A stretch of DNA of 64,000 bases from Thermodesulfobacteriota bacterium. GTDB taxonomy: Bacteria; Desulfobacterota_D; UBA1144; Nemesobacterales; UBA2774. Under the pieces are notes generated by a model, which was given only the letters and a program-made list of their open reading frames with translations, was not told the origin of the DNA and ran no database searches. The DNA is taken from assembly GCA_041753155.1 (NCBI GenBank), contig JBGSVA010000021.1, forward strand, positions 1,012-65,011, given 5' to 3'. Numbering within the stretch: the stretch's first letter is position 1; the number at the start of each line of letters is the position of its first letter. Shown in pieces: positions 1-38,601 of this stretch. The translations under genes and the position numbers were made by a program.

Positions 1-1336
1 CTCCATAATCGCGAGGGAAAAACCGGAAGGGGTGATTGTGCATCTCGGCGGCCAGACCCCCCTCAAGCTCGCTATACCGCTCGAGGAGAGGGGTGTGAAA
101 ATCATCGGCACATCGCCCGACAGCATCGACCTTGCGGAGGACAGAGAGAGGTTCAGGGACCTCGTCGAGGAGCTCGGGCTCAGGCAGCCCGAGAGCGGCA
201 TAGCGAGGAGCCAGGAGGAGGCTATCAGGATAGCGAACGATATAGGCTATCCCATCGTCGTCAGGCCATCCTACGTCCTGGGAGGCCGTGCAATGGAGAT
301 CGTCTACGCCGAGGATTCGCTCAGGCGATACATAAGAGAGGCGGTGAAGGTCTCCCCCAACCGGCCCGTGCTCATAGACAAGTTTTTGAAAGACGCCAAG
401 GAAGTCGACGTCGATGCCCTGTCCGACGGGAGGACCGTCGTCATCGGAGGAGTGCTCGAGCATATAGAAGAGGCCGGGGTTCACTCCGGGGACAGTGCCA
501 TGGTCCTTCCCCCTTTCTCGATCGAAGCCCGTGTGATAAAAGAGATAAAGCGTCAGACAAAAGAGCTCGCCCTTGCGTTAAAGGTCGTAGGACTCGTCAA
601 TATTCAATTCGCCGTAAAGGACAATATCGTTTACATACTCGAAGTAAACCCCCGTGCGAGCAGGACCGTCCCGTTCGTTAGTAAAGCCATAGGCGTCCCG
701 CTTGCCAAGCTCGGGACCAAGGTTATGATAGGGAAAACGCTCAGGCAGCTCGGATTTACCAAGGAGGTAGTCCCCGGGCACTACTGCGTCAAGGAGTCCG
801 TTTTCCCGTTTATCAAGTTTCAGGGCGTAGACACGATCCTCGGCCCCGAGATGAAGTCCACGGGAGAAGTGATGGGCATCGATAACGACCTCAGCATGGC
901 GTTCGCGAAGGCGCAGATTGCAGCGGGAAGCGACCTCCCCCTCGCCGGGACGGCATTCATAAGTGTCAAGGACGAGGATAAGCCCAAGCTCTCGGAGTTT
1001 GTAAAGGACCTCGAAGGTCTCGGGTTTAATATTATGGCTACGGCCGGTACAGCCGCCTATCTCCGGGGTATCGGCGTCGGATGCACCGTCGTGAAGAAGG
1101 TGATCGAAGGCCGCCCGCACGTAGTCGATCATATCAAGAACGGGGAGGTCCAGCTCGTCGTGAACACGACATTCGGGCAGAAAGAGGTGGAACAGTCCTA
1201 CTCTATCAGACGTACTGCACTCGTCCACAGGGTCCCCTACTTTACGACTATTTCTGCGGCCAGGGCCGCCGTAGGCGCAATCGAGGTGCTTATCAGGAAG
1301 GGTCTCGACGTTAAGGCTATTCAGGACTATTATTAA
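1..1336 (+). CDS. carB: carbamoyl-phosphate synthase large subunit, C-terminal portion (5' end outside window)
   Basis: The open frame continues from position 2 upstream of the first ATG, reading ...[24 protein letters not shown]..., typical of the CarB second ATP-grasp half. The C-terminal MGS-like domain is present. The carB-greA order is the usual synteny. Confidence 0.9.
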
Positions 1337-1440
1337 GTGTTGTATAATTGAATACCATGTTTATGTTATCCGAGAATGATTTAATCCGCTCGAGAAGATT
1401 TCCTTTCCCGCTTCCTTAACAGATCCAGGAGGATTTTAGT

Positions 1441-1917
1441 ATGACCGTAGAAAGAGTGCCGATGACTCCCAATGGATATAAAAAGATGCAGGAAGAGCTC
1501 CGCAGGCTGAAGACCGTAGAAAGACAGGAAGTGATAAAGCTGATCGAATTCGCGAGGTCCCTCGGGGACCTTTCGGAGAATGCCGAGTATGAGACGGCGA
1601 AACAAAGGCAATCCTTCGTGGAAGGGAGAATTCAGGAGCTGGAGAGTAAAGTCAGCAGGGCGGAAATTATCGACCCGGCCGAGCTCAGAAACAAGGACAG
1701 GGTAACGTTCGGGGTCAGGGTCAAGCTCGAGAACCTCGAGACCGGGGAGACCGTGACTTATCAGCTCGTGGGTCCTGACGAGTCCGAGCCCGATAACGGT
1801 CTCATATCGATAACATCGCCCATAGGCAGGGCGCTCATAGGAAAGCGGGTGGACGACGACGTTCAGGTCCATGCCCCGGGCGGCGTAAGGGAGTTCGTCG
1901 TTCTGGAGATAAGCTGA
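1441..1917 (+). CDS. greA: transcription elongation factor GreA
   Basis: 158 aa starting MTVERVPMTPNGYKKMQEELRRLK. It has the characteristic GreA coiled-coil N-terminus and an FKBP-like C-terminus. Confidence 0.9.
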   Translation: MTVERVPMTPNGYKKMQEELRRLKTVERQEVIKLIEFARSLGDLSENAEYETAKQRQSFVEGRIQELESKVSRAEIIDPAELRNKDRVTFGVRVKLENLETGETVTYQLVGPDESEPDNGLISITSPIGRALIGKRVDDDVQVHAPGGVREFVVLEIS

Positions 1918-1934
1918 GCCTGCTCCCGGGCGGT

Positions 1935-3014
1935 TCAGTCGACTACTACGCTTGATTCCACTTTACCCGTCTCCGGATCGTATATGTATTCTTCGCCCAG
2001 CGGATGAGCAGGGAAATCCCCTGTGGTCTCGAGCTCTATGAATTTTCTGAGCTCATCCAGGCTCCTCGGAAAATCTCCATATAGCTTTTTATATCTGGCG
2101 GACTTCGCGTTCAGGAATACAATCGCCTCCTGAATTCTCCGCTTCGAGAGATCGGAGCTTTTTACAGCTTCTATCTTGGGCGCGAGAATGAACTTGCCGC
2201 CCATAGGCGCTTCCGGAATTCCGTTTTTGACTACGCCCGACCGAGCCAAATCTTCAGGCGACGACGGCAGCCTTCCATAACGCTTTACGTACTCCTTTAA
2301 CGATTCCGTCAGCTTATCTTCGAGAGCCATCGTGTCTATCTCGTTTATATTCCTGAGCGCGAATTCCCTCCTCCCATCGCTCGGGCTCGTTTCGTAAATG
2401 ATTTCCCAGATCTTCCTCGAAAGCTCGTTGTTTCCTCCTCTCGCGTGAGCGGACGCAGCCATGCCCGCCATCGAGGCCTTTCTCAGCGGGGAGAGGCCCG
2501 GTTTTTCGGAGGCCTCCCTGAAGAGCTCTGCGGCTTTTTCGTAATCTTTCGGATAAAAATAGTAGATGAATGCCTCTTCGAGAGGCAGCTTGTAATTTTC
2601 GGGGTTGTTGCTCCTTCCCTTATCGAATAGCTCGATCCCCTTCATTGTTTCCCCGAGCCCGAATGGCGGGGGCTCAGCGAGGAACGTGCCCCCGTACCTG
2701 TATGCGTTCACGAACTTCGGGTCGAGGTCCGTGATGATATCGAAGTAGTGATAAAGCAGGTCGGGATTCTGCTCATTAGATTTCTTACTGCCGAAGTATT
2801 GGAGCGCCCTAAGCCAGTATATGTCCGCGAGGAGATCGTTGTAGCCTAGAGACAGCTTCTTAAGGGACGAAGACGATATGTAAAGGCTCTCTTCGACTGA
2901 CCGGAATCTGCCCCTTATCTCGTCGATCCTGATCTGAAACGGGATCGATACCGCAACGAGAGCGGCCAGCATGACAAGGGCGATCGTAGGTTTTATCGCG
3001 GTTCTGACTGACAT
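1935..3014 (-). CDS. membrane-anchored periplasmic protein downstream of an ABC-2 exporter (possible accessory component, PilG-like by position)
   Basis: One N-terminal transmembrane helix (IALVMLAALVAVSIPF) followed by a soluble repeat-like domain. The start lies 4 bp after the permease stop, so the two are translationally coupled. Confidence 0.35.
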   Translation of the reverse strand: MSVRTAIKPTIALVMLAALVAVSIPFQIRIDEIRGRFRSVEESLYISSSSLKKLSLGYNDLLADIYWLRALQYFGSKKSNEQNPDLLYHYFDIITDLDPKFVNAYRYGGTFLAEPPPFGLGETMKGIELFDKGRSNNPENYKLPLEEAFIYYFYPKDYEKAAELFREASEKPGLSPLRKASMAGMAASAHARGGNNELSRKIWEIIYETSPSDGRREFALRNINEIDTMALEDKLTESLKEYVKRYGRLPSSPEDLARSGVVKNGIPEAPMGGKFILAPKIEAVKSSDLSKRRIQEAIVFLNAKSARYKKLYGDFPRSLDELRKFIELETTGDFPAHPLGEEYIYDPETGKVESSVVVD

Positions 3015-3017
3015 CAG

Positions 3018-3821
3018 CTATTTAAACTCTTTCCTCTCGAAAATGATGGTCGCGAGTATGAGGAGTGCGAGTGTATATATGACCGCATATACCGTCGTAT
3101 ACAGAATCAGATCGGGGTTGACGATACCTCCGTATACGGCCTCGCTCCTCACGTCGAATTTCTCCAGATTGGGAATTATTCTGTATACCGCTTCTGAAAA
3201 GAGCGCGGTAAAGGGGCTTTTCACTTCCTCGGCGAATAGCCTGATATCGCTCGAGAAGCGGCCTATCGCGATGACGAAAAAGGTGAAGAGGGCGCTCATA
3301 ATGGGGGTCGTGAAGCTCGAGAATACGAGCGCAATGCCGATTACGACGAGGAATTCGAGGTATTCGAAATACACCGCGTTAAAAAACTCCGCGTAGTAAT
3401 GTCCCCCGTAATAAAAACTTATAAGCCCCTCGTATCTGATTTCTATTAACAGCACCAGAAGGAATAGAATAAGCGCCATGCCGAGCGTGATTACGAATAG
3501 AGTGATCCCCAGGCCCAGATATTTCCCGAATATGAATTCGTATCTCTTGATAGGCTTCGAGAAAATGTTGTAAACGGTTTTTCTCTCCACCTCTTTATAG
3601 ACGAGGCCTATACCGAGGAATACCGAGATCAGGATTCCGATTATGGATATGGCGGTGAGCCCCAGGTCCTTGACTATCTTGTTGTACTGCTCAGCCGATA
3701 TGCTGGCGAATACGAGAGAGCTCAGTATCATTATTATTGCGAATAGAATCAGGCTGTATAGGACCCTGTCCCTGATTGCTTCTATAAACGTATTGTGCGC
3801 GACACTCAGTATTCTTCTCAT
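3018..3821 (-). CDS. ABC-2 family transporter permease
   Basis: 267 aa with about 6 hydrophobic helices. It lies immediately downstream of the ABC ATPase. Confidence 0.7.
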   Translation of the reverse strand: MRRILSVAHNTFIEAIRDRVLYSLILFAIIMILSSLVFASISAEQYNKIVKDLGLTAISIIGILISVFLGIGLVYKEVERKTVYNIFSKPIKRYEFIFGKYLGLGITLFVITLGMALILFLLVLLIEIRYEGLISFYYGGHYYAEFFNAVYFEYLEFLVVIGIALVFSSFTTPIMSALFTFFVIAIGRFSSDIRLFAEEVKSPFTALFSEAVYRIIPNLEKFDVRSEAVYGGIVNPDLILYTTVYAVIYTLALLILATIIFERKEFK

Positions 3822-3854
3822 CTTATATTATTCGTGTGGCTGACACCGGAGCTT

Positions 3855-4799
3855 CTATTGTTCCTTTTGCGGGTTCCCCTTTTTGGCTTCCTCTACAAAA
3901 AGCCCTTCGAGGGATTTCCTGAGCGGGTGGATAGATACTATCTCGGCCGATGTGCGTGCGACGGCTTCGAGGACCCTCCGCTTGATGTCTTCGTCGAACT
4001 TGAGCACTATGTATCCGGCCCTCTGATCCATTTCCACCCTCAGGTCCTTTACTGACTGTTTGACTTCGTCACCGGGTCCTTCGAGATGCATTTCGTAGTC
4101 CGTGTGAATCTCTTTAAGCAGGTCACCGATCTTTCCGATTTTTATGACCGTGCCCCCCATGATTATCCCGACCCTGTCGCAGAGCGCTTCGACGTCAGAT
4201 AACATGTGGGAGCTGAGGAGTATCGTCTTTCCTTTCCGTTTCTCTTCTAGTATGAGGTCTTTTATCTCTCTCCTGCCTATCGGGTCGAGCCCGCTCATCG
4301 GCTCGTCGAGGATCATGAATTCCGGATCGTTCACGAGGGCCTGGGCGATGCCGATACGCTGGAGCATACCCTTCGAGTATTTTCTCATCTGCACCTTTTT
4401 CGCGTGCTCCATTCTGACTTTCCGTAGCAGCTCCTCTACTTTCTCGTGAAGGTATTTCCGCCTGAGGCCGTGGAGCTCGCCCATGTAGTAAAGGAGCTCC
4501 TCCCCGGTGAGATAATCGTAGAAGTAAGGGTTCTCCGGCAGGTAGCCGATCCTGCTTTTGGCCCCTGAGTCCGAGTGCTCTTTGCCGAGGAGCTCTATCT
4601 TCCCCTCGGTCGGGGTGACGAACCCGAGGATCGATTTGAAAGTCGTCGTCTTCCCCGCGCCGTTAGGCCCGACGAAGCCGAACACCTCGCCTTTATGGAC
4701 GTCGAATGTTACGTTCTTCAGGACGCGCGTCTTCTTGCCCGTGAATCCGGTTTTGTAGTCCTTTACGAGGTTCGTGATATTGAGTATTGCTTCTGACAT
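3855..4799 (-). CDS. ABC transporter ATP-binding protein
   Basis: Walker A motif GPNGAGKTT, signature LSGGMLQRIGIA, and Walker B ILDEP. Confidence 0.88.
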   Translation of the reverse strand: MSEAILNITNLVKDYKTGFTGKKTRVLKNVTFDVHKGEVFGFVGPNGAGKTTTFKSILGFVTPTEGKIELLGKEHSDSGAKSRIGYLPENPYFYDYLTGEELLYYMGELHGLRRKYLHEKVEELLRKVRMEHAKKVQMRKYSKGMLQRIGIAQALVNDPEFMILDEPMSGLDPIGRREIKDLILEEKRKGKTILLSSHMLSDVEALCDRVGIIMGGTVIKIGKIGDLLKEIHTDYEMHLEGPGDEVKQSVKDLRVEMDQRAGYIVLKFDEDIKRRVLEAVARTSAEIVSIHPLRKSLEGLFVEEAKKGNPQKEQ

Positions 4800-14709: not shown

Positions 14710-14845
14710 GGGGCGGCGGGGCTTTGCGGAACTGACTAAAATCCCGGTTCCGGTATCGGGCTTGCGTTCTCCGGCATCGTCGAAGTATGAATGGGTTATA
14801 CCCCCGTATGTCCGCGGCAACCCGCTGCCTGTCCGTCCTTTGGTG

Positions 14846-14869
14846 CACACACAATGTGTGTTTTATGAT
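14846..14869. promoter_or_regulatory. 24-nt element CACACACAATGTGTGTTTTATGAT (15-nt palindrome plus TTTTATGAT), identical copy at 38484..38507
   Basis: Exact repeat seen at two intergenic sites, each about 150 nt upstream of a plus-strand gene (K+ channel, dcd). Confidence 0.5.
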
Positions 14870-14900
14870 TCCATCCAACTCTTCTGCTTCCGCCAACATT

Positions 14901-14934
14901 CCATATGTCCGCGGCGGCCCGCCGCCCTTTTTCC
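14901..14934 (+). terminator. terminator-like GC hairpin plus T5 inside the intergenic leader upstream of the K+ channel gene
   Basis: CCATATGTCC-GCGGCGG-CCC-GCCGCC-CTTTTT. A related copy CCCCGTATGTCC-GCGGCAACCCGCTGCC lies at 14802..14830. Confidence 0.4.
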
Positions 14935-15011
14935 TCCCCTATCGGTTCCCTCCAAAATCCTCTATTATTTGTTTATGATTTATCCCGATTATTCCGCCGG
15001 AGGACGTTAGA

Positions 15012-34546: not shown

Positions 34547-35119
34547 CGGATTGACCTCGTTTCGCTATTGGAATAGGGGTAGCCGGACATAATAGCGGCG
34601 AATTGTCGTATGATGTTTTTTTTCATCTTTCTGATTTGTCTTAACGCTTAATTTTGCGCATAGCCGGATATGAAGATACAGCAAATGAATTATAAACTCA
34701 AAATCGCAGGCGATTACAGCCCGTGAGCGGCTATTTTACCGGCCCGCCTCGTTCTCCTTCTTCATTATGCGATTACGCGTATTGATATGTTTTTCCGCAT
34801 CTTCGGGAGGTATGAGGATTTAAATTGCTCCGGTCAAGGTACGGAGACTCCGTTAAGAGTGCCTGCCGGAAATGCATATCCCGCCCGTTCATATATTTTA
34901 GATACGAGCAGTGCCGGCTGCATTTCAAAAGCCTCGTCTTCCTCTTCAGCGCACTCGCGATAAGGGCGGTAGCCAGGGCGGCGTATTATGTAATCAGCGA
35001 CGTGCGCGCCCGGTTCAGGGAAAACCCCGGCATCCTGCGGGGCGCTTCCAGGACGGATCACGCTCGTGCTTGCGCCGTTGTTTATCTAGTTTTTAGATAG
35101 TAATATTCAGGAGGCCCTG

Positions 35120-38356: not shown

Positions 38357-38435
38357 TCGGACTTCTAGCGTCCCGGAATCTGTCATTTCGAGGCACAGCC
38401 GAGAAATCTATCATTTGCCTTTTCTTTTCATAAAC

Positions 38436-38507
38436 CACACTACGTGTGTGATTTTTGCTTCTTTTCATCAAGGAAAAGAAGAACACACACAATGTGTGTT
38501 TTATGAT
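38436..38507. promoter_or_regulatory. structured intergenic element: palindrome CACAC-TACGT-GTGTG, a 9-bp perfect hairpin (CTTCTTTTC-ATCAAG-GAAAAGAAG), then the 24-mer CACACACAATGTGTGTTTTATGAT
   Basis: Seen directly in the sequence. The second half is identical to 14846..14869. Confidence 0.5.
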
Positions 38508-38566
38508 ACTTCCGTATCTCCTCTGCCAACCCACCAACCGCGGCAATCTCATCCCTCACCCCCGAT

Positions 38567-38601
38567 TGAGTTAAATCCCCGTCTGTGGTACTATGCTTTT
38601 C
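38567..38601 (+). promoter_or_regulatory. candidate sigma-70 promoter for dcd (TTGAGT-17 nt-TACTAT)
   Basis: Hexamers spaced 17 nt apart, about 40 nt upstream of the dcd ATG. Matched by pattern only. Confidence 0.3.

Follow-up and report, generated by a model that had tools for sequence, protein, structure and literature searches.

Several described groups of bacterial repeats share traits with the element reported here. The REP and BIME elements of enterobacteria and the RAYT-mobilised REPINs of Pseudomonas are short extragenic imperfect palindromes arranged in mosaics; they often lie at the 3' ends of genes or where two genes converge, are able to act as mRNA 3'-end hairpins and, as inverted doublets, form one long hairpin. 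The BOX elements of Streptococcus pneumoniae (boxA-boxB-boxC) are likewise intergenic, structured and variable between relatives, with modules that can be missing, repeated or re-ordered. Miniature inverted-repeat transposable elements (MITEs), such as Correia of Neisseria and ERIC, share with our element the non-coding nature, the length of about 100-380 nt, the inverted modules at the ends of larger composites and the presence or absence at orthologous sites, here between pheS and dcd; known MITEs can give their neighbours terminators or promoters. We analyzed a 64,000-nt stretch of DNA (the window) from a Thermodesulfobacteriota bacterium (GenBank assembly GCA_041753155.1, contig JBGSVA010000021.1, positions 1,012 to 65,011), in which the same 24-mer lies upstream of a K+ channel gene (locus 1) and between pheS and dcd-gyrB (locus 2). 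A sequence-only reading of this DNA had taken the first spacer for a structured leader, compatible with a small RNA, a riboswitch-like attenuation leader of the K+ channel gene or a repeated regulator-binding module. We favor, with a probability of roughly 0.6, the reading that both loci are copies of a modular interspersed repeat of some uncultured Dadabacteria and not a gene-specific leader, any role being one at the 3' end. Judged from sequence comparison, the element is most likely a REP/BIME/BOX-like mosaic repeat with terminator-like hairpins that would serve at most as a 3'-end or insulator module.

The repeat unit and its distribution

The longest exact repeat of the window is the 24-mer CACACACAATGTGTGTTTTATGAT, found at 14846-14869 and 38484-38507, both times on the + strand; no other match with up to 3 mismatches occurs in the window, and 0 are expected (100 shuffles). 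Its positions 2-16 are a perfect palindrome of 15 nt (ACACACA-A-TGTGTGT), after which comes TTTATGAT. Both the identity of the 24-mer in the two spacers and the palindrome had been read correctly. The spacer at locus 1, described as 300 bp, measures 302 nt (14710-15011) and also contains a 26-nt direct repeat, CCGTATGTCCGCGGCAACCCGCTGCC (14804-14829) and CCATATGTCCGCGGCGGCCCGCCGCC (14901-14926), the two members of which are 85% identical, lie 97 nt apart and correspond to the two CCRTATGTCC repeats with GC hairpins noted before. As had also been noted, the second ends in T5: it folds as GCGGCG-GCC-CGCCGC (14911-14925) and is followed by CC and T5 (14928-14932). A consensus scan called this hairpin with its T5 (14911-14932) and the 24-mer hairpin (14845-14869) terminator-like, with further such calls at 38436-38455 and 38485-38507 at locus 2. 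CCRTATNTCC occurs five times in the window against 1.3 expected, three of them within the two repeat copies, while other matches to it and to TTTATGAT (45172, 57921) lie in unrelated sequence.

In a scan of one genome per GTDB species, the exact 24-mer was found at seven places in three metagenome-assembled genomes (MAGs; four, two and one per MAG), two of these places being the orthologous K+ channel locus and the others unrelated loci. A metagenome scan with its first 19 nt added further Dadabacteria-like copies, in some of which the variants TTTTACGCT and TTTTTACGAT replace TTTTATGAT, most of the 30 matches being unrelated low-GC or eukaryote-like DNA. Searching with nhmmer and a hidden Markov model of the 80-nt unit recovered diverged copies beside canonical ones and at orthologous loci. 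Altogether, about 20 copies of the unit occur in at least five Dadabacteria assemblies, mixed with other repeat modules and essentially all intergenic; CACAC-loop-GTGTG followed by a T-rich stretch and TAYGA is found in both orientations. The unit spans about 80-110 nt and consists of a 5' hairpin (module H; canonically ACACAC-AAT-GTGTGT), a U-rich linker of 2-8 nt that ends in TAYGAT, a C-rich tract some 42 nt long and, at the 3' end, a GC hairpin, which is either of F type (CRTAYGTCC + GCGGCG-ACC-CGCCGC) or of S type (CGTTC-stem-GAGCYTGTCGA-stem). Both hairpins of the unit are conserved in structure. About 55 nt 3' of the 24-mer are homologous in nearly all copies, with the consensus yCTTCCgaAyCTCyTCyGCTCAAAyCaGCAAy..GGCAA. 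No conserved sequence was found 5' of the hairpin, conservation stopping at its 5' foot. Units occur singly, in tandem (L026 and L045; L-numbers denote related loci) or within composites of 300-380 nt together with modules A, B, P/Q and L, in recurrent orders such as H-CU-S/F-P-Q-A/B-H; in L001 and L026 such composites carry inverted H modules at both ends.

For the K+ channel gene we compared seven orthologous loci, namely the window, L002, L005 and L043-L046. Among public sequences, the nearest to the window come from MAGs that bear the label Candidatus Dadabacteria, Thermodesulfobacteriota or uncultured delta proteobacterium, and the K+ channel coding sequence (CDS) of the window is 92.7% identical to that of GCA_020027805.1 (Candidatus Dadabacteria bacterium); an exact-protein look-up of the channel returned no record. 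A block of about 75 nt adjoining the start codon is conserved at all seven loci (72-93% identity to the window), even in L046, where the whole repeat unit is absent. Upstream of this block, the full H-CU-F unit is present in the window, L043, L044 and L045, and H-CU only, without the CCATATGTCC hairpin and the T5, in L002 and L005. The tract after the F hairpin is T5 in the window only; it reads TTTCT in L043, and L044 and L045 have no U-tract. The orthologs show neither a constant association of the unit with the K+ channel gene nor a conserved terminator or expression platform, as hairpin and T5 are absent from L002 and L005, the U-tract is missing in L044 and L045 and L046 lacks the element; this speaks against the proposed attenuation leader.

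The copies do not follow the divergence of the adjoining gene. The window, L002 and L005 share the H-CU 49-mer at 100% identity, yet their K+ channel CDSs differ by 6-10%; L043, with an equally close CDS (92.7-94.9%), has an H-CU copy that is by eye about one-third diverged and resembles that of L044, although L044 is more distant from the window than L043. Copy 1 closely matches, again by eye, the L006 copy at the unrelated pspA locus of another species. Since the identity of the copies does not track CDS divergence, the repeat spreads or is homogenized between loci, which is also the simplest reason for an identical 24-mer in two unlinked spacers. The comparison shows that units are polymorphic in presence and absence between related genomes and homogenized between loci.

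At locus 2, the pheS-dcd spacer measures 283 nt with the repeat, against 117 nt (L038/L039), 60 nt (L040) and 73 nt (L041/L042) without it, a presence/absence pattern as in MITEs. No repeat module was found in the shorter spacers, nor in 87 kb of those genomes; the dcd gene of L038/L039 is 95% identical to that of the window. What the window and L038/L039 have in common, in a form that has diverged in L041/L042, is the dcd promoter-like site and leader downstream of the repeat; the site reads TTGAGT-N17-TAATAT in L038/L039 and TTGTGA-N17-TACTAT in L041/L042. The tract at 38508-38554 constitutes the right part of the inserted repeat, its boundary with native sequence lying near 38544 by comparison with L038. 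These alignments identify the pheS-dcd copy as a lineage-specific insertion absent from close relatives, and as the promoter-like site and leader are kept in repeat-free relatives, the repeat would not be needed for dcd expression in this clade.

Every copy's 5' hairpin folds (-4 to -11 kcal/mol; -7.3 kcal/mol for the RNA hairpin of the H module at locus 1), with a loop that varies between 3 and 7 nt. At the K+ channel locus alone, the stem reads CACACA/TGTGTG in the window and GCACAC/GTGTGC in L043, with GCGCAG-AAC-CTGCGC in L044 and CGCGC-ACATATA-GCGCG in L045. Among eight distinct 15-mers, a small set selected by hand because MAFFT put several hairpins out of register, compensatory change affects 3 of 6 stem pairs and 95.7% of cells are paired. 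As the stems covary and the loop length varies, a nucleic-acid hairpin is indicated rather than a duplex site for a dimeric protein. Of the suggested regulator-binding module, the repetition is therefore real, while the binding of a regulator is contradicted by the compensatory stem changes and the variable loops. The A-B-H block of locus 2 (38428-38506) forms a single long hairpin (-31.9 kcal/mol, z = -7.06), which includes a CACAC-N-GTGTG hairpin (38436-38450) 48 nt upstream of the 24-mer copy. Such inverted A-B-H doublets are also found in L001, L003, L004, L011, L026 and L035; copy 1 (14846) is a singlet.

Many extragenic palindrome copies with a flanking motif, and inverted doublets that form a long hairpin, are features by which REP, BIME and REPIN elements are recognized, and the present family shows both. 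Its sequence is unrelated to theirs, however, each unit contains a C-rich tract of some 42 nt that is not palindromic as well as a second hairpin of another kind, it occurs in few exact copies per MAG rather than hundreds, and no RAYT gene was identified, no genome-wide search for one having been made. It differs from BOX in phylum and sequence and in that its modules cluster with other repeat families (P/Q, S, L), and from MITEs in that no parent insertion sequence or target-site duplication was found and the ends of the H-CU-F unit are not complementary. No description of this family was found in the literature searched on Dadabacteria repeats. The present analysis documents a repeat family in a candidate phylum without cultured members. 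Such repeats break MAG assemblies and are at risk of being mis-called as small open reading frames (ORFs) or regulatory RNAs.

Gene context and a possible role at transcript ends

Copies usually start 2-40 nt past the stop codon of a co-directional gene (six loci). The distance from the stop codon to the H module is 2 nt for LysE (L009), 8 nt for marC (L001b), 4 nt for a xanthine/uracil permease gene (L006b), 22 nt for a POR-like gene (L023b), 22-37 nt for a 417-aa gene at the K+ channel locus and 2 nt for a 94-aa ORF (L001e). In the case of carA, EamA, a lipase and a rhodanese, the unit is directed into the 3' end of this gene on the opposite strand, and at carA, EamA and lipase (3'-side gene only) it lies between convergent genes. 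No full unit was found in a purely divergent promoter spacer among the loci; one H-only fragment, L030b, may be in one. Given this placement, the unit cannot be a general promoter or leader for the downstream CDS. The orientation tally, about 8 co-directional against 2 opposite, is suggestive and not significant, and the correlation of the + orientation of the unit with the end of an upstream gene is to be read as suggestive likewise.

In the + orientation both hairpins tend to precede U-rich sequence. By eye, some 7 of 10 distal S/F hairpins have a U-rich tail; the terminator is a good one in the window and in L006a, whereas L044 and L045 have no such tail and L002 and L005 have lost the hairpin itself. 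The intervening tract contains 43% C and 12% G over 19 copies, compared to 27% each in the window, with 10-16 YC dimers in 18 of the 19 copies and 6 in L007a; being unstructured, C-rich and G-poor, it has the composition of the rut sites of Rho-dependent terminators. If the unit acts at all, the U-rich sequence and the position after stop codons suggest that it would act at transcript 3' ends, where two weak-to-moderate intrinsic terminators would flank a tract of Rho-loading (rut) composition. Because the hairpins tend to precede U-rich sequence and the spacer between them has this composition, the unit probably serves, where it acts at all, as a compound 3'-end or terminator module. Copy 1 would then insulate the promoter block of the K+ channel gene (14936-15011) from read-through of the asmA-like operon, and copy 2 would insulate the native dcd promoter (38566-38594) after pheS. 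The unit may spread by way of a single-strand transposase, of RAYT or IS200/605 type, or through gene conversion. Should its role as terminator or insulator be real, the repeat would be a case of terminators spreading as repeats.

The likeness to known terminators has its limits. Stem-loops followed by U-rich sequence just past co-directional stop codons are what is seen in intrinsic terminators, and the window copies present a stem-loop and U-tract 3' of a co-directional gene, as not all family members do. In contrast to ordinary terminators, the repeat is homologous between unlinked genes, and its first hairpin is AU/GU-rich.

Several observations weigh against the repeat reading and its proposed 3'-end role. 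The 5' hairpin is weak at the folding energies given above, and the orthologous copies in L043, L044 and L045 have no U-tract after either hairpin, so that terminator function is not conserved in every copy. The C-rich tract, at 42 nt, falls short of the 70-80 nt or so that are typical of rut sites. The copies L001a and L006a are antisense to both neighboring genes, and the orientation tally is small and derives in part from ascertained loci. The exact 24-mer is present in low number per MAG (1-4) compared with classical REPs, and no target-site duplication is recognizable between the filled and the empty pheS-dcd site. Finally, no transposase, including Y1, was found among the ORFs scanned in six repeat-bearing loci, whole genomes not having been searched.

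Alternative readings

One alternative bears on the way in which the repeat spreads and does not conflict with the reading as an interspersed repeat: the hairpins could be substrates of a single-stranded-DNA transposase of the REP/REPIN-RAYT or IS200/IS605 kind, any transcriptional effect being incidental. A conserved motif, GTGTG-TTTATGA, flanks the hairpin, copies occur in both orientations, the A-B-H doublets with their long hairpin are REPIN-like, and insertion polymorphism is combined with non-vertical homogenization. The A-B-H block is near-identical across species (L001, L011, L026), identity dropping sharply from about 100% up to TATGAT to about 55-60% by eye directly after it. What speaks against such an enzyme is the lack of any transposase among the ORFs scanned in six repeat-bearing loci, a copy number that appears low, and a geometry in which the conserved motifs are placed inward of the end hairpins, unlike IS608, whose cleavage sites are on the outer side. 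At pheS-dcd, moreover, the C-rich tract came in together with the hairpin, which leaves a right end at TATGAT unsupported there and contradicts an IS200/IS605-like right end at this hexamer, a candidate we had considered. We regard this alternative as unlikely.

A second alternative holds that the copies are independent multicopy genes of trans-acting small RNAs (sRNAs), with TATGAT as -10 element, a start about 7 nt further on and an RNA of 60-100 nt that exposes a C-rich, anti-Shine-Dalgarno-like single-stranded seed (CUCCUCCGCU in many copies) and ends at the 3' hairpin. A C-rich unstructured region followed by a 3' hairpin indeed resembles C-rich-seed sRNAs, T5 follows the F hairpin in the window and TATTTTTAT the S hairpin in L006a, TAYGAT keeps T1, A2 and T6 in most copies, and copies occur in any type of spacer, as expected for autonomous genes. 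However, a sigma-70 promoter scan of both spacers gave no site, a manual look for a -35 hexamer upstream of TATGAT found none that is conserved, there is no conserved extended -10, and TTCGAT in L044 and CACGAT in L045c lose a consensus T or A of the -10 hexamer, in L044 at its most critical position; the interpretation of TATGAT as a -10 is therefore not sustained. L002 and L005 have lost the 3' hairpin, no U-tract comes after it in L044, L045 and some further copies, and no Rfam family matches. Lacking its own conserved promoter and an Rfam match, and with a terminator in some copies only, the small RNA that had been proposed is doubtful for the family as a whole, for which we give it a slim chance; for individual copies such as window copy 1 and L006a it is possible.

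A bolder version of the repeat reading, which is a similarly long shot, would make H-CU-F/S a self-propagating functional cassette, either a mobile dual terminator/insulator or a multicopy RNA family with an anti-Shine-Dalgarno seed. In the first case, if true, genomes would acquire at gene ends a rut-like tract with an intrinsic hairpin before it and another hairpin behind it; in the second, C-rich RNAs released from 3' UTRs (untranslated regions) or made from a weak promoter would act globally on Dadabacteria ribosome-binding sites.

It is very improbable that the 15-nt palindrome is the operator of a dimeric regulator that co-regulates the K+ channel gene, dcd and other genes, although it is perfect, identical at two loci and overlaps the -10-like hexamer, and although a second CACAC-N-GTGTG palindrome lies upstream at locus 2. 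The half-site spacing of 3-7 nt and the covariation of the stems to GCGCAG/CTGCGC and CGCGC/GCGCG at an orthologous site do not fit such an operator, copies lie between convergent genes and directly after stop codons, and the copy before dcd, which relatives lack, was inserted upstream of the native promoter. From the known NrdR, DnaA, parS, matS and LexA boxes the palindrome departs in length or register, covariation again speaking against a duplex-specific site; an odd-length palindrome does not fit the 16-bp NrdR box (acaCwAtATaTwGtgt).

A riboswitch or attenuator of the K+ channel gene, with a promoter at the 24-mer and ligand- or ion-dependent termination or read-through at the hairpin with T5, is scarcely credible: in the window alone this hairpin does lie in a leader between a -10-like hexamer and the gene, and the element is kept upstream of the gene in several species, but the terminator is not conserved in the orthologs while gene and 75-nt block are, the repeat lies upstream of this proximal block and not within it, elsewhere the unit follows or faces unrelated genes and is not tied to one gene family, and the 40-nt stretch that separates the hairpins is poor in G and unpaired, with a fold z-score of only -2.6 for 14800-14940 and no conserved aptamer-like structure. 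The Rfam scan called for by the riboswitch-like reading gave 0 matches at gathering thresholds in the window and seven related loci; permissive scans of both spacers yielded chance-level results only (E at least 0.05, scores far below gathering), the miRNA-precursor and CsrC "hits" at locus 2 reflecting the long hairpin only. A false lead is thereby removed, in that neither a K+ channel riboswitch nor a shared operator needs to be invoked.

Some minor candidates were rejected as well. A small ORF starting from the ATG in TATGAT (37 codons at locus 1, 23 at locus 2) has no Shine-Dalgarno sequence, would encode unrelated peptides and loses its ATG in TACGAT variants. A minus-strand, GGA-rich RNA that resembles a CsrA sponge and ends at the palindrome is not supported either, GGA being enriched only because the + strand is C/T-rich, and the minus strand shows neither a promoter nor a conserved U-tract past the hairpin. 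Genes for tRNA or tmRNA were not detected.

Features of the two loci and associated repeats

Features of the repeat copies and adjoining native sequence at the two loci (window coordinates)
Feature	Position	Strand	Description
F' module	14804-14829	+	CCGTATGTCC and imperfect GC hairpin GCGGC-AACCC-GCTGC
H module (24-mer inside)	14845-14869	+	7-pair hairpin 14845-14861, then TTTTATGAT; 5' end of unit
C-rich, G-poor single-stranded tract	14870-14900	+	tccatccaactcttctgcttccgccaacatt; 41% C, 7% G; homologous in nearly all copies
F module	14901-14934	+	CCATATGTCC, hairpin GCGGCG-GCC-CGCCGC (14911-14925), CCTTTTTCC; terminator-like in this genome only
Native K+ channel leader/promoter block	14936-15011	+	outside the repeat
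L-type hairpin repeat	38382-38408	+	GTCATTTCGAGG-CACAG-CCGAGAAATC; separate repeat family, same insertion; absent in L038-L042 spacers
A module	38428-38450	-	inverted H-like module, CACACACGTAGTGTGGTTTATGA on - strand; terminator-like on + strand
B module	38458-38481	+	perfect 9-bp hairpin CTTCTTTTC-ATCAAG-GAAAAGAAG between two inverted H-type modules
H module, second exact 24-mer	38484-38507	+	exact match
C-rich, G-poor tract	38508-38554	+	ends in GCGGCAATCTCATCC; 47% C, 12% G; homologous to tracts of other copies
Native dcd promoter-like site	38566-38594	+	TTGAGT-N17-TACTAT; outside the repeat

Locus 1 is bordered by a 223-aa gene without Pfam match, which comes after an AsmA/DUF748-like gene, and by the K+ channel gene (Ion_trans_2). 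The F' module is probably the leftover 3' end of a preceding repeat unit; the same module of CRTAYGTCC and hairpin also closes units in L006, L043, L044 and L045. The native block of the K+ channel gene contains a second TTTATGAT (14972-14979) and a Shine-Dalgarno sequence, GGAGG (14999-15003). In five related genomes (L005, L043-L046) the 417-aa gene, which has no Pfam match and a C-terminus ending in ...YRF, lies between the 223-aa and K+ channel genes; L002 keeps its 3' end, and the window has lost the gene. The 94 nt remaining at 14710-14803 of the window have no counterpart in L043 (7090-8563), L005 (3780-5254), L045 or L046, and the deletion or rearrangement that removed the gene abuts repeat copies. 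The repeats mark recent rearrangements, in the window adjoining the loss of this gene.

At locus 2, the dcd promoter-like site was missed by the consensus promoter scan (8/12 matches). L-type hairpin repeats also occur in L007 and L003, with a related GTCATTGCGAGG...GCGGCAATC in L009, L030 and L001; their layout (stem, GA/GA, short stem, loop) is that of the S hairpins, and the family clusters with the 24-mer family. Elsewhere in the window, the 570-nt spacer from cstA to an amino-acid permease gene (34547-35119) is free of repeat modules; in L038/L039 a H+-pyrophosphatase gene lies between the two (L038 4537-6660).

S hairpins are located at L026 424-440 and 535-551, L023 5906-5922 and L006 5758-5774, as well as at about 9800-9830 of L045 and about 1680-1705 of L006. 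Their 11-nt loop is invariant and their stems covary (GCCCT/AGGGT, GTCCT/AGGAC, GTGCT/AGCAC), which suggests a recognized structure; a tandem G.A/A.G pair may adjoin the stem. We presume that this hairpin family may occur widely outside the phylum. The P (TTCCGACATTACAGAATTTGCG) and Q (ATTTTTAGCAAATTATGTA) modules form, in inverted orientation, the two ends of a palindromic unit that is MITE-like and about 190-330 nt long, found at L001 2848-3126 and 4145-4425 (93% identical), L006 1720-1913, L023 5604-5897 and L026 449-583. As H-type modules enclose this unit, several repeat families gather in one and the same spacer.

Among the metagenome matches, the 19-mer CACACACAATGTGTGTTTT occupies a fixed place in an unrelated low-GC (37-40%) repeat in L008, L012, L013, L024, L036 and similar contigs, many of which belong to a single set of related JGI samples; the low-GC repeat, probably a transposable element of eukaryotic or other kind, is unrelated to the Dadabacteria repeat. 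In L003 (MAG MFD09730.bin.2.52), a run of small paralogous ORFs (about 170-184 aa; 1003-4692) with weak IPTL-CTERM and prealbumin-like (SpaA_4) matches lies beside a repeat-rich region.

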